Positions 1 to 56,684 of a stretch of 64,000 nucleotides of DNA are shown piece after piece. Every line of letters starts with the position of its first letter. The first letter of the stretch is position 1. The notes under the pieces were generated by a model. That model saw only the letters and a program-made list of their open reading frames with translations, was not told where the DNA came from and did not search any database. The DNA lies in sequence record PZ151149.1. One strand, written 5' to 3'. The position numbers and the translations under genes are program-made. This DNA comes from a phage.

Positions 1-90
1 AGTAACAATTTCTCCTTTCTTTGCTGCATGTTCTACCATATACTTCAAAGTTTCTTCGGAAGCAAGTGCTGCCGCTACTGGATTAATCAT
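1..90 (-). CDS. hypothetical protein, N-terminal 30 codons only (gene continues beyond window start)
   Basis: ATG at 90..88 preceded by AAGGAGA; open frame runs to window edge; sits downstream of early promoter at 115..155. Confidence 0.4.
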   Translation of the reverse strand, partial: MINPVAAALASEETLKYMVEHAAKKGEIVT

Positions 91-114
91 TTTTGATTCT
101 CCTTTGTTGTCGAT

Positions 115-155
115 GTGTGCATTATGCTATACACTATTCCGGTTGTCAACACCTA
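115..155 (-). promoter_or_regulatory. early sigma70-type promoter (TTGACA-17-CATAAT)
   Basis: Reverse complement of 144..149 is TTGACA and of 121..126 is CATAAT, 17-nt spacer; member of repeated promoter family. Confidence 0.5.
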
Positions 156-160
156 AAAAC

Positions 161-192
161 AAAAAAGCCACCCTTTCGGATGGCTTTTGATT
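161..192 (-). terminator. intrinsic terminator (hairpin plus T-tract on minus strand)
   Basis: AGCCACCC-TTTCGG-ATGGCT inverted repeat, T6 on minus strand; near-identical hairpin recurs at 6510, 11449 and 54370. Confidence 0.55.
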
Positions 193-3969: not shown

Positions 3970-4392
3970 TTATTGGTCTACCCTCAAAACAACAGCCGAC
4001 ATTTTACCCGCAAGTCGTTTTGGATTCTCTATAATCATTCGGCAGCATAGACCGTGATACGGTTTACCCTCTTCGATTAGATCTACTGTCATTCCGATCC
4101 ACATGTTACCGTCAGTAATTTCTAATCGATTAGGTCGGTCTTCCATTTTCAGGAAGTCGAAGATCTCCGGCAAACGAGTTTCTACCTTATTGAATAGTTC
4201 CATTGTCTTATGTTCATCGATATGACGATCGGTTAATCTGTCGATCATATGTGGACTAAAGCGAATGAAAATATACTCGCCGTAACCATCATTCAAGCAC
4301 TTTTCTTTGATCTGCGCATTGGTTTTGCGCATTTCGGTTTCGAAGAATCTGCGCAGCTTACTACGGCGAACATGTACGTTAATTGTTTCCAT
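3970..4392 (-). CDS. regB: RegB-like endoribonuclease
   Basis: Recalled similarity to T4 RegB (RRSKLRR..., RLEITDGNMWIGMTV); start at internal Met with AGGAGA RBS. Confidence 0.75.
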   Translation of the reverse strand: METINVHVRRSKLRRFFETEMRKTNAQIKEKCLNDGYGEYIFIRFSPHMIDRLTDRHIDEHKTMELFNKVETRLPEIFDFLKMEDRPNRLEITDGNMWIGMTVDLIEEGKPYHGLCCRMIIENPKRLAGKMSAVVLRVDQ

Positions 4393-4393
4393 T

Positions 4394-4732
4394 TTATTCT
4401 CCTTTCTTGAACAAATTGCGAAGCCAGTATACAAACGGGATTTCTTTAAACTTGAATTTCTCTATAGTTAATTCTTTAGTAGCAAGATGAATACCATAAG
4501 AATCATGTGTCACGATATGCCATTTTCTATAGTCCAAATGTGAACAACCATTTGAATCTAGGTTAATAATAGTTTCTCGCTCACTAGGATTGTTTTTCCA
4601 CGATTTTGTAATCGGATCGCACATAATTCGACCTAGCGTACCATGAATAATCTCGCATTTGTAAACCTTTCCGGCAGTGATATAAGCGCAACCGTCATAG
4701 TCGGTATAAACAAACACTTCTTTAACACTCAT
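4394..4732 (-). CDS. hypothetical protein, member of local 3-gene paralog family
   Basis: Shares NGCSHLDYRKW motif with next two genes; RBS AAAGGAG upstream of ATG 4732. Confidence 0.55.
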   Translation of the reverse strand: MSVKEVFVYTDYDGCAYITAGKVYKCEIIHGTLGRIMCDPITKSWKNNPSERETIINLDSNGCSHLDYRKWHIVTHDSYGIHLATKELTIEKFKFKEIPFVYWLRNLFKKGE

Positions 4733-4757
4733 TTTAATACTCCTTTGTAGTTTCGAT

Positions 4758-4798
4758 GGGGGTATATTACTACCCCCGTTTTGACGTGTCAACTACTT
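4758..4798 (-). promoter_or_regulatory. early sigma70-type promoter (TTGACA-17-TAATAT)
   Basis: -35 at 4787..4792 (rc TTGACA), -10 at 4764..4769 (rc TAATAT); -10 embedded in palindrome GGGGGTA..TACCCCC. Confidence 0.45.
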
Positions 4799-5038
4799 TT
4801 TCAAGAATTTTTTGAGTACATTCCAAAGACCTTTATTCTCGGCTTGTTTTGGTTCTTCGATCAGTGTCCATGTTCGACCGTCTAAGTGTGCACAATTTTT
4901 AAGGCAAATAAAAATCTGGTGTCCCTTATCATCACGGATATAACCACTATTCGCAAATCTTTCATGTGGTGTATATTCATACAGTGTATTCGGTGTAATA
5001 TACTTGCGGTTACTATAAGGTGTCGTTACATATTTCAT
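4793..5038 (-). CDS. hypothetical protein, paralog family
   Basis: ITPNTLYEYTP...GYIRDD...CAHLDGRTW pattern shared with 5035..5229. Confidence 0.55.
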   Translation of the reverse strand: MKYVTTPYSNRKYITPNTLYEYTPHERFANSGYIRDDKGHQIFICLKNCAHLDGRTWTLIEEPKQAENKGLWNVLKKFLKK

Positions 5039-10059: not shown

Positions 10060-10386
10060 TTAGAAAGAAACAGTTTTCAAGAAATCCAGATTTTCAGTAC
10101 CGAAAACAGAAAAGTAGTGTTTTCCTTTTTCGGTTTTAGAGAAAGCGATTGTCTTCTCTACATGGTGACGGAAGCCAGACAGACGATCACCCAGGTCAAG
10201 GCGGCAAGCGTAAGTAGTGCCGTTTTCGAAAGTAACCTCGATTTGAGTTTTGTCATATTCGCTTTCATAGGCTTTTGCTGCCGCGTCCTGTGCTTTACGC
10301 TCGAAGTCTTCGAAGTGGAATACTTCGTTTGCGTTAGCGAATACAGAAGATTCAGAGAAGATAACTTTAACAGATACTGGTTTCAT
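10060..10386 (-). CDS. hypothetical protein
   Basis: 108 aa ORF with AAGGAG RBS, directly downstream of early promoter 10422..10462. Confidence 0.6.
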   Translation of the reverse strand: MKPVSVKVIFSESSVFANANEVFHFEDFERKAQDAAAKAYESEYDKTQIEVTFENGTTYACRLDLGDRLSGFRHHVEKTIAFSKTEKGKHYFSVFGTENLDFLKTVSF

Positions 10387-10421
10387 TTTGATACTCCTTA
10401 GTAGTTCGTGTTTCGTTTCGA

Positions 10422-10462
10422 TGGGTGTATTATGATATACACCCTATCGTGTGTCAACAACT
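10422..10462 (-). promoter_or_regulatory. early sigma70-type promoter (TTGACA-17-CATAAT) with conserved leader
   Basis: -35 at 10452..10457, -10 at 10429..10434 (reverse complement); palindrome GGGTGTATA..TATACACCC over -10; leader ATCGAAACGAAACAC. Confidence 0.55.
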
Positions 10463-10465
10463 TTT

Positions 10466-10654
10466 TTAGTCTTTTTTCATAATTTCTAGGGCAGTTTCTA
10501 CCGCACCTTTCCAACCTTCCCACATAATGGACATAGTGATGAAGGTAAAGCACCCGCAGGAATCAGCCTTTTTAGAAATAAACCATTCTACAAACTCTTC
10601 GCTCATACCATGCTCTTTAGCGGATTCGCGTAATTGTTCAATTTTGTCTTCCAT
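10466..10654 (-). CDS. hypothetical protein
   Basis: 62 aa ORF. Confidence 0.5.
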   Translation of the reverse strand: MEDKIEQLRESAKEHGMSEEFVEWFISKKADSCGCFTFITMSIMWEGWKGAVETALEIMKKD

Positions 10655-10663
10655 AGTATCACC

Positions 10664-10852
10664 TCAACACTTAACGTTATTCAATCGATTTTGAAAGTAC
10701 ATATAACAAGCATAGTTCTGTTTTGGTTGTACCGTATCAGATAGACACGCTTTTACAGCCTCGCGGTCCGATGGATCTACACCCTCAGCTTTAAGTAATG
10801 CTAAAATCTGGTTATAGCGTACTCTTAGTTGTACTAATGGTTTCTCCCCCAT
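10664..10852 (-). CDS. hypothetical protein
   Basis: 62 aa ORF. Confidence 0.5.
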   Translation of the reverse strand: MGEKPLVQLRVRYNQILALLKAEGVDPSDREAVKACLSDTVQPKQNYACYMYFQNRLNNVKC

Positions 10853-10863
10853 AATATACCCTC

Positions 10864-11091
10864 TTACAGTTGATCAGCAATGTATGCGGTGCATTTGCGG
10901 AGTTTAGCCATAGCACCACCTTTCATGTCGCTTGCGCCTACAATGTTCATGATCTCTAAGCGATCAGCCGGATTCAGTCTAGTAGCCCAGATCTGGTTAG
11001 CCAGTTCCATTTTACCCATCTGCGGTTCCATCTCAAACAGTTCACGCTCAAAGTCGATAATTTCTTTTGCTGCGTCTTTAAAGTTAATCAT
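10864..11091 (-). CDS. hypothetical protein
   Basis: 75 aa ORF with GGGAGA RBS downstream of promoter 11114..11154. Confidence 0.55.
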   Translation of the reverse strand: MINFKDAAKEIIDFERELFEMEPQMGKMELANQIWATRLNPADRLEIMNIVGASDMKGGAMAKLRKCTAYIADQL

Positions 11092-11113
11092 TTTGATTCT
11101 CCCGTTTCGTTGA

Positions 11114-11154
11114 TGGTTGTATTGTAGGGGAGTTATCCTCCCCTGTCAACACTT
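11114..11154 (-). promoter_or_regulatory. early sigma70-type promoter (TTGACA-17-TACAAT)
   Basis: -35 at 11144..11149, -10 at 11121..11126; palindrome AGGGGAG..CTCCCCT adjacent. Confidence 0.45.
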
Positions 11155-11157
11155 TTA

Positions 11158-11343
11158 TCAGAAATATGCAATATAGTTTGCCAGTCCTACAGAGTCATCA
11201 TTCGGCATTGCTTTTACTGCCAGTTCAAACCCTGCTTCAACTTTCTGTTTAGCGGATTCTTCGTTATAACCCCAAATTACCAGAATAGCTACTACGTTTT
11301 CTTTGCTTACTGCTTTCAGTGCTTTAGTGATGCGACGTGCCAT
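11158..11343 (-). CDS. hypothetical protein
   Basis: 61 aa ORF downstream of promoter 11383..11423. Confidence 0.55.
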   Translation of the reverse strand: MARRITKALKAVSKENVVAILVIWGYNEESAKQKVEAGFELAVKAMPNDDSVGLANYIAYF

Positions 11344-11382
11344 AATTTGATTCTCCGTTTAAGAAAGTGTGTTTCGTTTCGA

Positions 11383-11423
11383 TGGGTGTATTATGCTATA
11401 GGCGGGGTCTGGTGTCAACAACT
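11383..11423 (-). promoter_or_regulatory. early sigma70-type promoter (TTGACA-17-CATAAT) with conserved leader
   Basis: -35 at 11413..11418, -10 at 11390..11395; leader ATCGAAACGAAACAC. Confidence 0.55.
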
Positions 11424-11448
11424 TTTTTCAAAAAAATTTAGGCAATAA

Positions 11449-11476
11449 AAAAGCCACTCCGAAGAGTGGCTTATAG
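11449..11476 (-). terminator. intrinsic terminator
   Basis: GCCACTC-TTCG-GAGTGGC hairpin followed by T6 on minus strand. Confidence 0.6.
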
Positions 11477-11621
11477 GGGAAGGTAGCGAATCTTCCTTGT
11501 CTCCAACCTGCTAGCGGCCTAGCAAGTGAATGCTTTAGCGTACCGGATCACCCCATACGCTGCAATAAATGCGGCTAGGTGACGTCCAAATCATTCTAAC
11601 CGCGCTGTCTTTAGTTCACTA

Positions 11622-11840
11622 TTATTTATATCGCTTTCTCTCGCGACGTTTTTGATCTTCTTCCTTGATAGAGTTAAATGCATCAAAAAGACACATGACA
11701 CTGATCAGGAACATAACCGTATTTTCTACGATATCCCACGGCTTCGCATCAGTACAGATCCCCCAAACGGTAAGAAATGCAAATAGTGCAGAAGAGATCA
11801 CAAGCATGATACTTGCTAAGATATAAAAAGTCATCTTCAT
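11622..11840 (-). CDS. small membrane protein
   Basis: 72 aa, hydrophobic N-half, basic C-terminus. Confidence 0.5.
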   Translation of the reverse strand: MKMTFYILASIMLVISSALFAFLTVWGICTDAKPWDIVENTVMFLISVMCLFDAFNSIKEEDQKRRERKRYK

Positions 11841-12019
11841 GGTTTTACCTCAATTCTTCGATATTCATCACACATCCACGCAGTAAGCAAGAATCCCAAC
11901 ACATAAGCAACAAAATACGTTAATGCTTCTTCTGGTTCCGTGCTATGTGTCATCAGTAAACCAGCGAGAACAGTCTTAATAATTACATTTAAAATAATTA
12001 GCCACGCAAATAGTTTCAT
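11837..12019 (-). CDS. small membrane protein
   Basis: 60 aa hydrophobic; ATGA overlap with neighbour. Confidence 0.5.
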   Translation of the reverse strand: MKLFAWLIILNVIIKTVLAGLLMTHSTEPEEALTYFVAYVLGFLLTAWMCDEYRRIEVKP

Positions 12020-12255
12020 CGTTTGCCCAATTTCGGCCGAGTCTTTTCAAACTTATACATTCCGTAACAATCTCGAATCATCCACGTAACAAGAGCACCA
12101 GTCAACACCGACAACACACAGAAGAAGTAAAACGGTCCGGTTGCATTATCAACATGAGCAAGCCATGTAAAGAAAACACATGCTAAGAATGTAAAGAACA
12201 TCATAAAGCACAAGAAAGCGAAATATTTTATACTACTCATAGAGCCACCATACAA
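12016..12255 (-). CDS. small membrane protein
   Basis: 79 aa hydrophobic; alternative start at 12240. Confidence 0.5.
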   Translation of the reverse strand: MYGGSMSSIKYFAFLCFMMFFTFLACVFFTWLAHVDNATGPFYFFCVLSVLTGALVTWMIRDCYGMYKFEKTRPKLGKR

Positions 12256-12343
12256 CAGATCATAAGAAAACCCAACGCAATAAGAATTGCATCAAATTTA
12301 GTGAACTCAGGTCCACCTATCAACATCATTCGTTCCTGTTCAG

Positions 12344-12541
12344 TCATAGATCACAGATCCATCTAACAACACCACATACAGCGATCAGGAGTGTAGGACC
12401 ACTTGAGAAGAAAACCAATGTACAAAAATCATCTAGTGTAATACCGGAATAACTACCGACTGCAATCACACCGATGATCAGACACAGAAAGAAAACAAAT
12501 GCAATCAGAAACAAAGTATTACTAAACAGTTTAGTGATCAT
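12344..12541 (-). CDS. small membrane protein
   Basis: Hydrophobic ORF, start at internal Met of ORF 12344..12586. Confidence 0.4.
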   Translation of the reverse strand: MITKLFSNTLFLIAFVFFLCLIIGVIAVGSYSGITLDDFCTLVFFSSGPTLLIAVCGVVRWICDL

Positions 12542-12734
12542 TAGACACCCCACGACGGTCAATTTCAAAAACTTTCTTATCACCAACGAAGCATGTCACA
12601 ACTGCCTCGTTGACTTCCGCAAATTGTTGTGTTACCCACTTAAGGTCAGATCGAAACAATGTTTTGTTAATAACAAATGTTTTACCGATCTTATCCTTAC
12701 CCATAAATTTTGCGTTAACCATATCCAATTCCAT
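12531..12734 (-). CDS. hypothetical protein
   Basis: 67 aa soluble ORF. Confidence 0.45.
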   Translation of the reverse strand: MELDMVNAKFMGKDKIGKTFVINKTLFRSDLKWVTQQFAEVNEAVVTCFVGDKKVFEIDRRGVSNDH

Positions 12735-12743
12735 ATTATAGCC

Positions 12744-12902
12744 TTATTTGCTAATCGCTAAACCTAATCCGAAGAGAGCACCCGACGCTACAGTATACCC
12801 GAAAGTTTCAAATGCAGTAAAGATATCTAAGCCACCAGCTAACAGAGTTGCAGTAAACAGAGTACCAGCTACGAACATAAAAGTTTTACCGATAAATTTC
12901 AT
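12744..12902 (-). CDS. small membrane protein (52 aa, below ORF-track cutoff)
   Basis: Manually translated MKFIGKTFMFVAGTLFTATLLAGGLDIFTAFETFGYTVASGALFGLGLAISK; AAAGGAGA RBS; downstream of promoter 12927..12967. Confidence 0.4.
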   Translation of the reverse strand: MKFIGKTFMFVAGTLFTATLLAGGLDIFTAFETFGYTVASGALFGLGLAISK

Positions 12903-12926
12903 CTTGATTCTCCTTTCGTTTGTTTG

Positions 12927-12967
12927 TGGGGGTATCTTACTACCCCCGTTTCATGTTGTCAACTGTT
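12927..12967 (-). promoter_or_regulatory. early sigma70-type promoter (TTGACA-17-TAAGAT)
   Basis: -35 at 12957..12962; -10 weaker; same GGGGGTA..TACCCCC palindrome as at 4761..4777. Confidence 0.4.
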
Positions 12968-12968
12968 T

Positions 12969-13346
12969 TTAAGAAAATTTTACTTCGTCTACAATGTCTT
13001 TCATGACATTGATTTCCATTCCGGTCAGAACACGTTGGAACATGTGCTGCACATACGCTTTCAGGTATTCATTTGATGGCTTACTATCGAAAGTCTTTTT
13101 AGTGTAGTAGTCATCACCGAAAGCTACTGTAATTACATTTTCGTCGTCGTTCCAAGCGATATAAGCAAATTTGCCGTTATCCCAGAAGCGAGCACTAATT
13201 GCTACTTTTGTTGAATCGAATCCTACTTCGCTGTGAGATTCAAGAACTACTTGCGTACCAGTTTCTTTATGAATGTAGTAGCGGGATACTAAGTCAAAGT
13301 TACGGGTGTAGTGACATTCGAATTTATCTTTAAACATCATCATCAT
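12969..13346 (-). CDS. hypothetical protein
   Basis: Start at MMMMFKDKF with AGGAGA RBS; upstream part of track ORF overlaps the promoter. Confidence 0.6.
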   Translation of the reverse strand: MMMMFKDKFECHYTRNFDLVSRYYIHKETGTQVVLESHSEVGFDSTKVAISARFWDNGKFAYIAWNDDENVITVAFGDDYYTKKTFDSKPSNEYLKAYVQHMFQRVLTGMEINVMKDIVDEVKFS

Positions 13347-13376
13347 TTTGATTCTCCTAAGTGTGTTTCGTTTCGA

Positions 13377-13417
13377 TATGTGCATTATGCTATAGTCGTT
13401 TATGGTTGTCAACAACT
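13377..13417 (-). promoter_or_regulatory. early sigma70-type promoter (TTGACA-17-CATAAT) with conserved leader
   Basis: -35 at 13407..13412, -10 at 13384..13389; leader ATCGAAACGAAACAC then AGGAGA and ATG. Confidence 0.55.
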
Positions 13418-13423
13418 AAAAAC

Positions 13424-13452
13424 AAAAAACCCCGAAAAATTTTCGGGGTATA
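13424..13452 (-). terminator. intrinsic terminator
   Basis: CCCCGAAAA-TTTTCGGGG hairpin followed by T6 on minus strand, right after 13456 stop. Confidence 0.6.
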
Positions 13453-13455
13453 AAA

Positions 13456-13926
13456 TTACAGTTTGGTCGTCCACTCCAGGTCTAGATCTTCGACATACTC
13501 ATGAGATCGGACAATCTCTAAATCGAACTCTAGGTCAGTGCCAAATTTACGCGCACCAACATCATAAGAAAGCGTGATATGCGGTACATATTCAGGATAA
13601 TCCCACGTCGCACCTAAAGCAGTGCCGATATCGTGTCTGAATTGCATGTAGTCGCTTTCAAATGCCAACACAAGTGCATTAGTACCGGATTGAGTTTCAA
13701 ACACTTTCAAATGGCATAGAGAGCCTAAGAACTTCTCCCCTTCTTCTGGGATAAACGGAACATAAACACGAGAATATAAGATAGTGCTATGCAGTTTATC
13801 ACGAGTAACGGCATTAGGCAGATCGTAGAACTCCTGCAATTTTTCAATGCGGTCTAGTGTATCCTCAGTGAATTTAACCGCCGCATATGTACCTTTAACG
13901 GATTCTCGAAACGGGGTCATAATCAA
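13456..13926 (-). CDS. 57B: 2H-phosphoesterase-like protein (T4 57B position)
   Basis: Two H-x-T/S motifs (HSTIL, HITLS) typical of LigT/2H phosphoesterases; gene order matches T4 57B-57A-1. Confidence 0.55.
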   Translation of the reverse strand: MIMTPFRESVKGTYAAVKFTEDTLDRIEKLQEFYDLPNAVTRDKLHSTILYSRVYVPFIPEEGEKFLGSLCHLKVFETQSGTNALVLAFESDYMQFRHDIGTALGATWDYPEYVPHITLSYDVGARKFGTDLEFDLEIVRSHEYVEDLDLEWTTKL

Positions 13927-16546: not shown

Positions 16547-17575
16547 TTAATATGTATCAGCTAATTTAATTATGTTATCAAGTTCCGTGATTGGTAAAGT
16601 TTCTGTGTATCCATCTTTCAACATGGATTTATCAACAACGCCACAATGATAAGTTCTCTTTATTTCCTTTTCAAGTTCCCACGGAATCCAGCCATCAACA
16701 CTTTGTTTGACGTAAACAAGTTTGTGAACAAACTTAGATTTCTGCATATGTTGTTTCATTCTGGTTTCCGGTAATTCATTGGTTACACCAAACTTTATAA
16801 ATTTATCATCTAACGTCTGGATATAAAAATATCCCATCTCAGATGGACGATAGCCAGAAGAACTACATTTCGGACACCCTTTAGCATTTCTGTTGAACGT
16901 ACAATATCTTACAGAAAATTCGGCGTCATGTTTTGTACATTTAAGTTTTATCCATGAATTTGCAGTACCTATCCATTCACCATCGACACCTATATATTCA
17001 TACCCTAACTTTTTACATTTATCTTCTATTCTAGATAGTGCATCTTCCACGGGAACGACATATTCCGTCTTAAATTGTTCAGCCGCACATTTCTTACAAC
17101 CACATGTACCATGATTTTTAAAATCAAAGAACTTTGTATTCTTCCAAATATGGTCATGTTTCTTGCATCTAAGAATCATCTTAGTAATTTGTGATTTCCA
17201 GCCACCAACAAATCCCAAAAATTCATAATCAAGATCTTTACATTTTTCTTCAATGAATTTGGTTGCTTCATCTTCTGTCATAACTCCCCTACATTGAGGG
17301 CAACCAACAATAACCTTTTTAGCATAGAAACTATTACTGGAAACATCATAGACAGTTCCATGCTTATTGCATTGGATAACAGATCTAGTCAATTTTCCTT
17401 TCCATTCTCCAGTAAATCCTAAGAATGTATGGTCGACAAGTTTACATCTTTCAATAACTTTATCTGCAAACTCTCTAGGAGATTTTGTTACCTTGTTTAC
17501 TCTGTATTCTATTTCTTCCGGTTGACGAAGATCATAAACGTGGGGATTTCTCCCCACGGAATTAATATTAAGCAT
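16547..17575 (-). CDS. homing-endonuclease-like protein: three tandem zinc-ribbon modules plus C-terminal T5orf172/GIY-YIG-like domain
   Basis: Three repeats FLGFxGxWKxxxT...C.KH...CxxC; C-terminal GYFYIQT...KFGVT; start at 17575 with AGGAAGG RBS. Confidence 0.6.
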   Translation of the reverse strand: MLNINSVGRNPHVYDLRQPEEIEYRVNKVTKSPREFADKVIERCKLVDHTFLGFTGEWKGKLTRSVIQCNKHGTVYDVSSNSFYAKKVIVGCPQCRGVMTEDEATKFIEEKCKDLDYEFLGFVGGWKSQITKMILRCKKHDHIWKNTKFFDFKNHGTCGCKKCAAEQFKTEYVVPVEDALSRIEDKCKKLGYEYIGVDGEWIGTANSWIKLKCTKHDAEFSVRYCTFNRNAKGCPKCSSSGYRPSEMGYFYIQTLDDKFIKFGVTNELPETRMKQHMQKSKFVHKLVYVKQSVDGWIPWELEKEIKRTYHCGVVDKSMLKDGYTETLPITELDNIIKLADTY

Positions 17576-18390
17576 CTTTCCACACCTTCCTTGCATCATA
17601 GTTTTTACCTTTAGAAACAAATTTATATGTGTTAAGGTAGATAATATTGCTCCAGTCTTTCGGGCTAATCTCAACAAGTTTTGTTTTAATGTGTCCCGGT
17701 AGATATGCTTTGATCATGTGGTCACTACCACGCATACCTTTTACATCACTCCATTTAATCTTCAAGCGTGTTTTATTGCTCAAGGTAGGAGTAGATGCAT
17801 ATTGCTTTAAAAGTGCTTCCAGAAACTGCTGACGGGCTTTAGGCGTTACATAGTGTAAGTTAAGACCCAGCATTACAGTATTACCCGCCTTTGTCTTAGA
17901 ATCACCCAGACAAATGATCAGCGGGAAAACATCCCAATATGGCAAAGTATCTTTATACTTCGCATCATACATAAAGGTATAGATTCGCCCTACTTGCGGT
18001 TTTACAATCTGGTGTCCCTTTATTCCAGCTTTTATTGTTTTAGTAAACCACTCCTGTGATTTTTCTTTAGGACGACTCTTTGATACAGCACGCATAGACG
18101 CACGAAAATCATTAATCATCATCATTGCGCGTTGCTGCTTATTGAGACCCTTTGCACCTTTCCCTTTTAGTTTTTCAACTTCTATTGCTGTTTTAATTTC
18201 GCTGGCATAACGAGACATACTTTTAGTGAAAGTCGCATAGGCTATTCCCTTAGAATCTGCAAATGCTTTAGCTGTCATTCCTTTGGCTTTTGCTTTCGCA
18301 AATTCTACACCCAATTCGACCCACTGTTTAGACTTTCGCTTTTGGGGAGACGGCTTTTCGTCTTCTGTGATTATTTCAAATACGCTCATA
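17568..18390 (-). CDS. protein at T4 gene 2 position (DNA end protector-like)
   Basis: 274 aa from internal Met MSVFEII; length and position match T4 gp2; not verified. Confidence 0.45.
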
Positions 18391-18515: not shown

Positions 18516-19538
18516 ATGCAAGATATTAAGAACAAAATTTTGATGCAGTTTCCGAATGCAGATATCAAGTATTTAGAAAAGTATCTAGAAATTTGTGCAA
18601 ACCCAGATAAGGATGGGGAATTAGAGAGGCATCATATTCTACCAAAATCAATTTGGAAGGAATATGAAGACCTTAAAATTCATGATTTTAATGCTGTTCA
18701 CTTGAACACCGTTCGTCATATGATGGCACACTACTATTTCAGTAAAGCAACAAATTCCATTTGGAAGTCTGTTGTTATGATGTTTAATACCAGAATTGAT
18801 ATTATGAAGGAATTGCCAGAAGATATTGTGTTGAAACTTGCTGGTATATCAGAAGAGGCAAAGCGAAAACATGTATACACGGAAGAATCTAGACTGAAAA
18901 TGTCGGAATCACAAAAACGTTTCATGGCTTCTCTTGATGAAGAAGAATTAAAACGTCGCCATAAGAAAAGAACTGATTCCGTTAAAGAACATTTTAGAAA
19001 CTTGAGCGATGAAGAACGAGAAAGAAAGTATAAAGAACGTGGCAAGAAAATATCAAAGGCGTTAAGTAATAGATCAGAGGAAAAACTTAAATTACGAAGA
19101 GAAAGGCTTCTACAAACTATAAACTCAAAGTCAGACGAAGAAAAACAAAGAATCGCCAAACTACTTTCAGATTCACAAAAACCGAAAGAAACATGGGGAA
19201 AATTTGATGAGTTATATGCATTATGGATTGATCTGAATATGCCGGGTCAATATGTATTCAAGCGCGAGGCCATTAAACGTGGATACCCAGATAGGTCATA
19301 TGATTACATCGTTAAAGAAATGAAAAATAAGTACATAAAGGAGAATGGAAACGACATAATAAAATTAAATCCCAGAAAAAATTCTGGTGTCTGGGTATAT
19401 TATGACGAAATATATAAGCTGTGGAAAGAAAATGGTATGCCTAGCGATAGAAAAACAAGAAAAATAGCGGTCGAGAATGGTTATCCCGACCAATGCTATC
19501 AAACTATAGTAAAAGACTTTAAGAACTCACTTATTTAA
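18516..19538 (+). CDS. HNH homing endonuclease with two C-terminal ~45-aa tandem repeats
   Basis: ELERHHILPKS...NAVHLNTVRHMMAH (HNH); repeats WGKFDELYALW...GYPDRSYDYIVKEM and WVYYDEIYKLW...GYPDQCYQTIVKDF. Confidence 0.8.
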   Translation: MQDIKNKILMQFPNADIKYLEKYLEICANPDKDGELERHHILPKSIWKEYEDLKIHDFNAVHLNTVRHMMAHYYFSKATNSIWKSVVMMFNTRIDIMKELPEDIVLKLAGISEEAKRKHVYTEESRLKMSESQKRFMASLDEEELKRRHKKRTDSVKEHFRNLSDEERERKYKERGKKISKALSNRSEEKLKLRRERLLQTINSKSDEEKQRIAKLLSDSQKPKETWGKFDELYALWIDLNMPGQYVFKREAIKRGYPDRSYDYIVKEMKNKYIKENGNDIIKLNPRKNSGVWVYYDEIYKLWKENGMPSDRKTRKIAVENGYPDQCYQTIVKDFKNSLI

Positions 19539-29261: not shown

Positions 29262-29276
29262 GTATATGATTTTAAA

Positions 29277-29300
29277 GCCAATTCGTGAGAATTGGCTTTT
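29277..29300 (+). terminator. intrinsic terminator after gene 8
   Basis: GCCAATTC-GTGA-GAATTGGC hairpin followed by TTTTTCTATTTT. Confidence 0.55.
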
Positions 29301-29313
29301 TCTATTTTGGGTG

Positions 29314-29342
29314 TTGACAATCTTGTCTGGTGAGGTATAATG
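29314..29342 (+). promoter_or_regulatory. consensus sigma70 promoter (TTGACA-17-TATAAT)
   Basis: TTGACA at 29314..29319, TATAAT at 29337..29342, exact 17-nt spacer. Confidence 0.65.
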
Positions 29343-29370
29343 CTCACATCTAAACAACGGAGGATAAATT

Positions 29371-29628
29371 ATGGCACGTCGTAAATTTACAGATAATTGT
29401 GAAGCAATTCAGGTATCCCCTTGCGGTTGGGATGTGATTGCGAACGGTGAAAAGATCGGAGAGATCATCGATCATACTCATTCATCATTAGCTGATTACA
29501 CCGATGAACTGTGGGAAGGTATCAACTTCATGAATGACACTAAGCGATTCAAGACTATTGACGAAGCTATCTATTTTGTATACAATCCAACTTTCGGTAT
29601 GTGGAGTGATAGAAAATGGCACGCGTAA
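29371..29628 (+). CDS. hypothetical protein (first gene of inserted cassette)
   Basis: 85 aa ORF with ACGGAGGA RBS. Confidence 0.6.
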   Translation: MARRKFTDNCEAIQVSPCGWDVIANGEKIGEIIDHTHSSLADYTDELWEGINFMNDTKRFKTIDEAIYFVYNPTFGMWSDRKWHA

Positions 29629-54322: not shown

Positions 54323-54363
54323 GCGTGCCATTATAGGCATCTAAATAGCTCTGTCAAGCACTA
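54323..54363 (-). promoter_or_regulatory. sigma70-type promoter (TTGACA-17-TATAAT)
   Basis: -35 at 54353..54358 and -10 at 54330..54335 on minus strand. Confidence 0.5.
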
Positions 54364-54369
54364 AAAACA

Positions 54370-54392
54370 AAAAAGCCACCCCGAAGGATGGC
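54370..54392 (-). terminator. intrinsic terminator after hoc
   Basis: AGCCACCCCGAAGGATGGCT hairpin with T6 on minus strand. Confidence 0.5.
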
Positions 54393-54404
54393 TGATAGAT
54401 TTCA

Positions 54405-55958: not shown

Positions 55959-56684
55959 TTACTTGAGTGTGTGGAATTGGCTATGTTTAGTCTCTCGCAC
56001 CTTGACAGACCCATCGCGTTTGATATAATAGATCAGTGACTTGAGGGTGTCGTGTACATACGCGTGCGGGAAACGCTCTGGATACTTCTTCCAATCTGGA
56101 GTATTAACGATCCAGTCGAAGATCCACCACGGGCAGGAGTAGTAACCACGACCGCCACCGATCAAGCAAATGGTCGGACGGAAGCCAGTAAGATCGCAAA
56201 ATGAATCAGTGTCATGTGCGGGGGGACGATGTTCTGCTTCGTCAGAGAAAATGTTTGCTACCGGAGATTCCACTTTAACTTCCGGTGCTTCTTCAACATC
56301 TGACTTAACTTCTTCAACCACTGGTTCAACTGTTGGAGATTCTTCTTTTGTTTCTTCAATGACGATCTCAGGTTCTTTCATTGCTTCAACCAGAGACGGG
56401 TCAACTTCGTCGAATACCACTTTATCATCTGCGGTGTCTGTTGCCAGAATAAGATCGTTAATACTGGTTCCTTCTGCCGGAGTTTCTTCTTCCATTTCGG
56501 AAGCCAGTTTAGTTAATTCGGTTTCTACGAACTCGATCATGTTCTCTAGTGATAAAGTCTTTTTGACCTTAATATCAAATTGTTTTGCGTAGTCCGCTAA
56601 TTCTGTTTTAGCTGTTTTCTGTGCTTCTTTGTCGTCGGACGCCGCAATAGCGCGGAGTTCTTCGAAATATTCTTTATCAAACAT
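55959..56684 (-). CDS. protein at T4 inh position (acidic middle, conserved-looking C-terminal domain)
   Basis: 241 aa between hoc and uvsW; positional assignment only. Confidence 0.4.
   Translation of the reverse strand: MFDKEYFEELRAIAASDDKEAQKTAKTELADYAKQFDIKVKKTLSLENMIEFVETELTKLASEMEEETPAEGTSINDLILATDTADDKVVFDEVDPSLVEAMKEPEIVIEETKEESPTVEPVVEEVKSDVEEAPEVKVESPVANIFSDEAEHRPPAHDTDSFCDLTGFRPTICLIGGGRGYYSCPWWIFDWIVNTPDWKKYPERFPHAYVHDTLKSLIYYIKRDGSVKVRETKHSQFHTLK

Follow-up and report, generated by a model that had tools for sequence, protein, structure and literature searches.

The 64,000-nt stretch of phage DNA considered here (record PZ151149.1; hereafter the window) carries a family of early promoter cassettes that are very probably PeSLs (promoter-early stem-loops), regulatory elements that recur in the genomes of RB49/phi1-type T4-like phages. 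Matches to GenBank phage records assign the window to Krischvirus, the RB49-like "pseudo-T-even" (T4-type) coliphages; 59 GenBank phage records, all Krischvirus and including RB49, phi1, JSE, GEC-3S, and PHB13, align across the entire interval 10300-13500 at 92.7-97.3% identity. The minus strand carries every gene within 1-16 kb of the window, and comparison with phi1 and RB49 shows that the promoter region corresponds to their stretch from ORF113 to 57B around dmd. Seven minus-strand promoters were recovered by a consensus scan and by a separate pattern scan of the window, with -35 hexamers beginning at 149, 4792, 10457, 11149, 11418, 12962, and 13412. The cassettes that contain them are named below by these positions and are listed with two genes of the same region; the transcription starts (+1) are predicted positions, and SD denotes the Shine-Dalgarno box.

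88..188, minus: cassette 149, at the window edge; terminator 188-163 then T-tract; -35 149-144; -10 CATAAT 126-121; predicted +1 near 114; SD box 102-93; ATG 90
3970..4434, minus: regB, encoding the RegB endoribonuclease (Pfam PF10715, E=3e-48)
4730..4800, minus: cassette 4792, before the ORF095 homologue; -35 4792-4787; hairpin GGGGGTA/TACCCCC 4777-4758 over -10 TAATAT 4769-4764; predicted +1 4757; SD box GGAGTATTAA 4743-4734; ATG 4732
10384..10465, minus: cassette 10457, before the ORF113 homologue (phi1 PeSL114/113); A-rich tract; -35 TTGACA 10457-10452; hairpin GGGTGTAT/ATACACCC 10444-10423 over -10 CATAAT 10434-10429; predicted +1 A 10422; leader ATCGAAACGAAACAC 10422-10408; SD box GGAGTATCAA 10397-10388; ATG 10386
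11089..11157, minus: cassette 11149, before the ORF116 homologue (phi1 PeSL117/116); -35 11149-11144; spacer hairpin AGGGGAG/CTCCCCT 11144-11126; -10 TACAAT 11126-11121; predicted +1 11114; SD box 11102-11093; ATG 11091
11341..11472, minus: cassette 11418, before the ORF117 homologue (phi1 PeSL118/117); canonical terminator 11472-11451 then T-tract; A/T-rich tract; no in-promoter hairpin; -35 11418-11413; -10 CATAAT 11395-11390; predicted +1 11383; leader 11383-11369; SD box 11356-11347; ATG 11343
12531-12734, minus-strand region: Dmd (Pfam)
12900..12968, minus: cassette 12962, before the ORF124 homologue (phi1 PeSL125/124); -35 12962-12957; hairpin GGGGGTA/TACCCCC 12947-12928 over -10 TAAGAT 12939-12934; predicted +1 12927; SD box 12913-12904; ATG 12902
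13343..13449, minus: cassette 13412, before the ORF125 homologue (phi1 PeSL126/125); terminator 13449-13429 then T-tract; -35 13412-13407; -10 CATAAT 13389-13384; predicted +1 13377; leader 13377-13363; SD box 13357-13348; ATG 13345

TTGACA, a 17-nt spacer, and an A-rich tract ending ...AAAAGTNG directly upstream of the -35 are present in all seven promoters, as a preliminary description of this DNA had stated, and the CATAAT-like -10 that it reported is also found (CATAAT in four, with TACAAT, TAAGAT, and TAATAT in the others). The -10 agrees with the consensus at 4-5 of six positions and the whole promoter at 10-11 of 12. Upstream tracts are of the ...TAAAAAAGTTG type in all seven, with a stop codon within or beside the tract, and downstream each promoter is followed by the box GGAGWATYAA and then by ATG. 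The positions under which the promoters had been listed (115, 4758, 10422, 11114, 11383, 12927, and 13377) are predicted +1 sites and not the starts of the -35 hexamers. That they are near-identical early promoters is borne out by several lines of evidence: they are near-consensus sigma70 promoters lying before small early open reading frames (ORFs), the GEC-3S record annotates five of these promoters, along with two terminators, at orthologous sites, sister elements are active in lacZ fusions, and the RB49 early promoter consensus in the literature agrees with 5'-end mapping. Among the hits listed by one full-text keyword search there was no paper on a Krischvirus transcriptome or on the mapping of its transcription start sites.

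PeSLs were defined in phi1 and RB49 by Arbiol et al. (2010; PMC2839356; Genome Biol Evol 2:140), who describe a sigma70-consensus promoter with an AT-rich upstream region, a polyG/polyC stem-loop, and an SD site after it. The stem-loop lies "most commonly between -35 and -10 or overlapping the -10," five positional subclasses are distinguished, and about 52 elements per genome are clustered in hyperplastic regions before ORFans (PMC2839356). For the same two phages, Comeau et al. (2014; PMC4122927; GBE 6:1611) give the signature as TTGACA-N17-TATAAT plus a Gn-loop-Cn stem-loop. The window cassettes come from the same genus and occupy positions orthologous to those around dmd in phi1/RB49 (ORF113-126), where five have named phi1 counterparts (PeSL114/113, 117/116, 118/117, 125/124, and 126/125). 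They share with the published elements the promoter type, the AT-rich tract, the Gn-loop-Cn stem-loop (in the spacer, over the -10, or upstream), the 3' SD box and ATG, the hyperplastic ORFan setting, and a link to insertions and deletions; no difference of kind was found. The PeSL family has already been described, and the window copies are orthologues of published members rather than a new repressor-operator system.

Each of the seven window cassettes has one stable stem-loop in a described PeSL position, with folding energies of -10.8 to -16.6 kcal/mol: three lie over the -10, one in the spacer, and three upstream. In four of the seven, the 30 nt that separate the -35 from +1 include a perfect, built-in G/C-rich inverted repeat of 7-8 bp. 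When spacer and discriminator were shuffled with the -10 held fixed, the probability of at least four promoters in seven having a stem of at least 7 bp was about 1e-10, one of the four stems scoring 6 bp within the test region. RNA folding, which the preliminary description had proposed as a check, gave stable hairpins for all four (-10.8 to -13.6 kcal/mol; z-scores -3.0 to -4.4). Its claim of inverted repeats over the -10 stands in part: the repeats are present and non-random, and they occur in four of the seven promoters, over the -10 in three. The arms of its first repeat (GGGTGTAT/ATACACCC) are 8 bp long, not 9; GGGGGTA/TACCCCC is found twice (cassettes 4792 and 12962); and AGGGGAG/CTCCCCT does not cross the -10 but occupies the spacer, its outermost bases being the last of the -35 and the first of the -10.

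Promoters 149, 11418, and 13412 have no built-in repeat; instead, a canonical hairpin and T-tract lies 10-33 nt upstream of the -35 (188-163, 11472-11451, and 13449-13429), and these three conform to the definition of an intrinsic terminator. The four built-in hairpins do not, since their tails, ATCGAAAC, ACAAACAA or ACAATACA, contain no U-tract. The same partition is seen in a census of 28 cassettes with a conserved SD box, drawn from the window and three phi1 regions: 18 carry only a built-in hairpin and six only an upstream terminator, a single cassette has the two together, and three lack both (Fisher p=0.0014). The two stem-loop types are nearly mutually exclusive and look like different ways of doing one job.

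The point at which the built-in hairpins end is constrained. Among the genuine -10-overlapping hairpins, 12 of 13 stop 6-8 nt past the -10 (nine at 6 nt precisely), and those of the spacer class stop at the base with which the -10 begins or at most two bases from it. An A stands seven bases past the -10 in 27 of 27 cassettes, an invariant predicted +1, and the intervening discriminator is ACNCCC-like in most cassettes, with or without a hairpin. With its end at -1 and the invariant +1 A behind it, the built-in hairpin would be missing from the transcript of its own cassette and would form only in RNA read through from upstream.

Paralogous arms vary in sequence and still pair, as in GGGGGTA/TACCCCC, GGGAGTA/TACTCCC, GGGTGTAT/ATACACCC, GGGGATAT/ATATCCCC, and GCGGTTA/TAACCGC. 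Stems formed by an arm with its own partner average 7.75 bp, against 5.46 bp when arms are cross-combined, and none of 5000 permutations reached the observed value in a test that ignores the shared ancestry of arm pairs. A single internal mismatch occurs in five stems (two of them possibly incidental) and is G·T or T·G in all five; sense-strand RNA can accommodate such a pair, which turns into A·C on the opposite strand. This asymmetry is one that favors an element acting at the level of RNA. Taken together, arm covariation, the restriction of mismatches to G·T, and the end at -1 favor an RNA-level element acting on read-through transcripts. Paralogues were used for the covariation analysis because the 15 orthologous genomes compared are too alike (93-97% identical); a scan of IMG/VR with a promoter-plus-leader pattern returned three contigs only and supplied no wider diversity for covariation. 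Across these genomes the stems are almost invariant, and the free 5' spacer bases that adjoin the -35 are hypervariable.

Several observations weigh against this account of the built-in hairpins. No compensatory changes were found among the 15 close orthologues, in which two single C>A changes break a pair (PHB13 and phiS) and three changes alter the length of a G or C run. The tails of the four hairpins (ATCGAAAC or ACAAAC) lack a U-tract, and these structures are not canonical intrinsic terminators. For the window's own hairpins, termination is suggested by analogy with one published reporter assay, in which the stem-loop of PeSL211/210 cut read-through to a downstream lacZ about as strongly as rrnB T1 (PMC2839356). 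The phi1 counterpart of the element so tested (PeSL212/210) is a spacer hairpin, GGGGATC-ggt-GATCCCC, without a U-tract and of the same kind as those in the window. In the same study lacZ fusions revealed strong PeSL promoter activity, one wild-type PeSL yielding about 13,000 Miller units, and promoter/terminator activity was reported for the sister elements PeSL206/205 and PeSL211/210 (PMC2839356).

Taken as a whole, each cassette is about 70-130 bp long and fills the gap between two small early genes. Its 5' part holds the stop codon of the upstream gene inside an A/T-rich tract resembling an UP element, followed by a near-consensus sigma70 promoter, TTGACA-N17-(C/T)A(T/A)AAT, that unmodified host RNA polymerase would use right after infection. 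Beyond it come the C-rich discriminator (ACNCCC), the invariant A as putative start, a short, A/C-rich, unstructured leader (ATCGAAACGAAAC-like), the near-invariant box GGAGAATCAAA, and the ATG. Each cassette also contains one G/C-rich stem-loop, either an upstream hairpin with a U-tract, serving as terminator, or a built-in hairpin of 7-9 bp. A built-in hairpin either lies entirely within the spacer or pairs spacer bases that would otherwise be free with the -10 and discriminator. Ending at -1 or earlier, it would form only in RNA entering from the preceding gene, where it would most likely insulate neighboring mini-operons, whether by terminating transcription, by attenuating it, or as a barrier at the 3' end. 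The likeness of the copies would have two causes, a common functional constraint on all parts and the roughly 100 bp of homology that permits recombination and the shuffling of small genes between cassettes.

Other explanations of the hairpins differ in how far they accommodate these data. The preliminary description had raised the possibility of processing sites in read-through transcripts, and of its suggestions this structure in read-through RNA comes closest to the evidence and to the published assignment, which is that of a terminator or attenuator. In its fuller form the idea is that the built-in hairpins do not terminate transcription and serve post-transcriptionally, blocking the 3' end or marking a processing boundary in polycistronic read-through RNA, stabilizing the upstream cistron or setting a limit to exonucleolytic trimming. 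A stable hairpin with no U-tract behind it (none of four), with wobble mismatches confined to the sense strand and an end exactly at -1 that makes it part of the upstream RNA only, is what such a role would call for. The reduction of lacZ expression by a spacer hairpin without a U-tract nevertheless fits termination or attenuation better (PMC2839356), and the near-exclusive alternation with canonical terminators suggests functional equivalence. An exclusively post-transcriptional function appears unlikely.

An improbable alternative is that the G-run/C-run hairpins are DNA recombination signals, recognized as cruciforms or single strands by a phage recombination protein during the excision and insertion of PeSL mini-circles, any effect on transcription being secondary. 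This was put forward as speculation by Arbiol et al., one RB49 mini-circle crossover having been mapped inside the loop (PMC2839356), and the cassette-bounded insertion and mosaic modules described below would be in keeping with it. However, the junctions of that insertion lie in the leader (ATCGAAAC) and not in the hairpin, arm sequences vary, short homology suffices for T4-type recombination, and the replacement of hairpins by upstream canonical terminators implies an RNA function; no recombinase is identified in the parts of the PeSL paper drawn on here (PMC2839356).

Still less probable is the proposal of the preliminary description that the palindromes are operators; on this reading a dimeric phage repressor or anti-sigma-linked factor would bind the duplex DNA over the -10 and shut the early promoters off. 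Dyad symmetry is indeed centered near the -10 in several copies, weak dyads (GCAT-A-ATGC and TGCC-TATAAT-GGCA) flank the -10 where a strong hairpin is missing, the way in which T4-type phages shut off their early promoters is described as not fully understood, and RB49-type phages have no MotA. An operator would be expected to present a common recognition sequence at a fixed position in all copies, and the window repeats do none of these things: there are at least five self-complementary, covarying arm pairs with no common sequence, and the center of symmetry shifts among spacer, -35-overlapping, and -10-overlapping classes. The repeat is missing and an upstream terminator is present instead in three of the seven window cassettes and six of the 28 in the census, a negative association, and G·T mismatches, present in every imperfect stem, suit one folded strand and would be meaningless for a symmetric protein site. 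Finally, that the repeats are a functionless by-product of promoter constraint and recent duplication is hardly credible, for although the 3' arm coincides with a conserved discriminator that also occurs without a hairpin and several copies are clearly paralogous, the shuffle probability is about 1e-10, the 5' arm is invariant across 15 genomes in an otherwise hypervariable spacer, and different arm pairs each stay complementary.

Some further features of the hairpins and spacers were noted. In genomes that are 93-99% identical, the bases between the -35 and the 5' arm (4778-4786 and 10445-10451, minus) are hypervariable, and in PHB13 the counterpart of cassette 4792 has a spacer like that of cassette 12962, a likeness suggestive of gene conversion from one cassette to another. 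Many spacer-class hairpins at phi1 loci L019-L021 (for example L019 5257, 5652, and 4093; L021 18978) have the arms AGGGGATC/GATCCCCT, so that the stem contains two GATC (Dam) sites; a Dam methylase is among the proteins encoded by phi1, and no GATC-type hairpin occurs among the seven window cassettes. The hairpins were also considered as terminators for the opposite strand and rejected in that capacity, since only 12926-12949 (plus) has a weak T-rich tail, there are no nearby plus-strand genes, and a G·T mismatch would there be turned into A·C.

Downstream of the promoter, the claim that three cassettes have a common leader was confirmed: ATCGAAACGAAACAC occurs exactly three times in the window (cassettes 10457, 11418, and 13412), with 0.21 occurrences expected even allowing two mismatches. 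The enrichment is confined to the longer leader, the core CATCGAMA alone giving eight matches in the window against six expected. Cassette leaders are composed of 51% A, 23% C, 16% T, and 10% G and are unstructured, with a mean minimum free energy (MFE) of -0.5 kcal/mol; an A/C-rich, unstructured leader is expected for efficient ribosome loading. The second position after the -10 was found to be C in 24 of 27 cassettes (window and phi1), in a C-rich discriminator. A C at that position is reportedly a non-optimal contact for sigma region 1.2, as in rRNA promoters; with such a contact, open complexes would be expected to be short-lived and promoter escape to be fast.

The SD box, which the preliminary description does not mention, is conserved: GGAGWATYAA has eight matches in the window, 0.63 being expected, and seven of them stand behind the promoters listed above. 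The eighth (56098-56107, plus) follows a TTGACA-N16-TATAAT promoter at 56002 (plus). In the form GGAGAATCAAA the box is identical in 21 of 27 cassettes, and in this form it agrees with the consensus for RegB/S1 targets in T4-type early mRNAs, GGAGRAYARAA (Durand et al., 2006, NAR 34:6549), at 10 of 11 positions, the exception being C at position 8; the seven window boxes and the one at 56098 match it at 9-10 of 11. Like the known RegB/S1 sites, GGAGAATCAAA lies in an unstructured, A-rich early translation-initiation region, and regB is encoded in the window; unlike them, the cassette box has C at position 8, where A ranks among the most conserved bases. Judged by this resemblance, RegB is likely to be the trans-acting partner of the GGAG(A/T)AT(C/T)AAA box, and through its predicted cleavage the SD box may double as a post-transcriptional off-switch for early genes.

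If hairpin and box are considered together, a PeSL could be a complete portable on/off module, in which a 3'-end RNA hairpin makes the upstream RNA end where the next one starts and a RegB/S1 cut in GGAGAATCAAA shuts off the ORFans within minutes. We regard this combined scheme as possible but doubtful. Were it true, any gene dropped between two cassettes would gain early, transient, and insulated expression.

Arbiol et al. proposed that inter-PeSL recombination shuffles the intervening genes, and excised "mini-circles" were detected (PMC2839356). Evidence of the same association with insertions, deletions, and replacements is present at the window locus. Relative to the window, phage Skers carries a 238-bp insertion at cassette 10457 (402-641 of locus L010, corresponding to approximately 10402-10413 of the window) that comprises a 47-amino-acid ORF (SKERS_252) and a degenerate second cassette, with both junctions in the ATCGAAAC leader; it is a clear cassette-bounded indel. 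In addition, the module between cassettes 10457 and 11149 diverges by 4-20% between genomes, compared with 0-3% for the flanking modules. Against this, a fine-scale profile places some peaks of diversity away from the cassettes, for example at 12350-12469. Support for a role of the cassettes in shuffling is real but partial at this locus, and the role is only partly visible because not every diversity peak sits at a cassette.

Comparison with other phage systems indicates where PeSLs differ. The early promoters (Pe) of T4 and the PeSL-like elements of the T-even IP loci are likewise strong host-sigma70 promoters with an A-rich, UP-like tract and a G conserved at -36. Small early genes are under their control, and in some cases they are paired with stem-loops. 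The T4 -35 is GTTTAC-like, however, as opposed to TTGACA in the cassettes, T4 stem-loops are weaker, AT-rich, and without polyG/polyC, and T4 switches to middle-mode expression through MotA/AsiA whereas RB49-type phages are without MotA. Lambdoid morons (Hendrix et al., 2000) resemble the cassettes in being self-contained units with their own promoter and terminator and a small accessory gene, but morons are not flanked by conserved repeats, and no role in mobility is ascribed to their flanks. A PeSL combines promoter and terminator in one repeated linker that also supplies the homology for recombination.

PeSLs are among the few concrete candidates for "linkers" that would let large lytic phages swap accessory genes while keeping expression correct, and they account for mosaic patches between close relatives. 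Their recognition aids the annotation of early transcription units in Krischvirus, a genus with several members in use for phage therapy. The published picture of PeSLs is unchanged by the present analysis, and the refinements to it are modest. Relative to the parts of that account drawn on here, they consist of the alternation of hairpin and terminator, a sense-strand RNA hairpin whose 3' end falls at -1 in the -10-overlapping class and whose mismatches are G·T only, and a near-invariant GGAGAATCAAA box resembling a RegB/S1 site.

Two further members of the family, both absent from the earlier list of promoters, lie elsewhere in the window:

29274..29372, plus: terminator 29274-29299; -35 TTGACA 29314-29319; 16-nt spacer; -10 TATAAT 29336-29341 with a weak 5-bp repeat GTGAG/CTCAC around it; leader ATCTAAACAAC; then GGAGG and ATG
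54330..54393, minus: terminator 54393-54374 then T-tract; -35 54357-54352; 16-nt spacer; -10 TATAAT 54335-54330 between TGCC and GGCA; then CATCGAC

A non-coding stretch of about 170 nt (11451-11621, minus) extends from the stop codon of the ORF118 homologue through the terminator 11472-11451. As RNA it folds into four to five hairpins with an MFE of -65.5 kcal/mol (z=-3.45), a value that none of 200 shuffled sequences equaled. All 59 Krischvirus records have the stretch, at 97-100% conservation, and it is found nowhere else; it contains no Rfam family and no tRNA, and the UPWr_E1 record annotates a 144-nt ORF within it; it is a candidate small or 3'-UTR (untranslated region) RNA. Over the whole window, an Rfam scan at the gathering threshold detected no family and ARAGORN detected no tRNA.

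Two large ORFs, at 16547-17677 (minus) and 18516-19538 (plus), lie among the gp2/gp4 head and DNA-end genes. The plus-strand ORF had no match in a Pfam search, and the minus-strand ORF encodes a CapR homology domain (Pfam PF21817, E=2e-14). The presence of large ORFs at this site differs among relatives, RB49 having neither, phi1 carrying ORF130.1, and PHB13 a 1023-nt plus-strand ORF at the gp2/gp4 locus, and both are probably mobile or accessory insertions.

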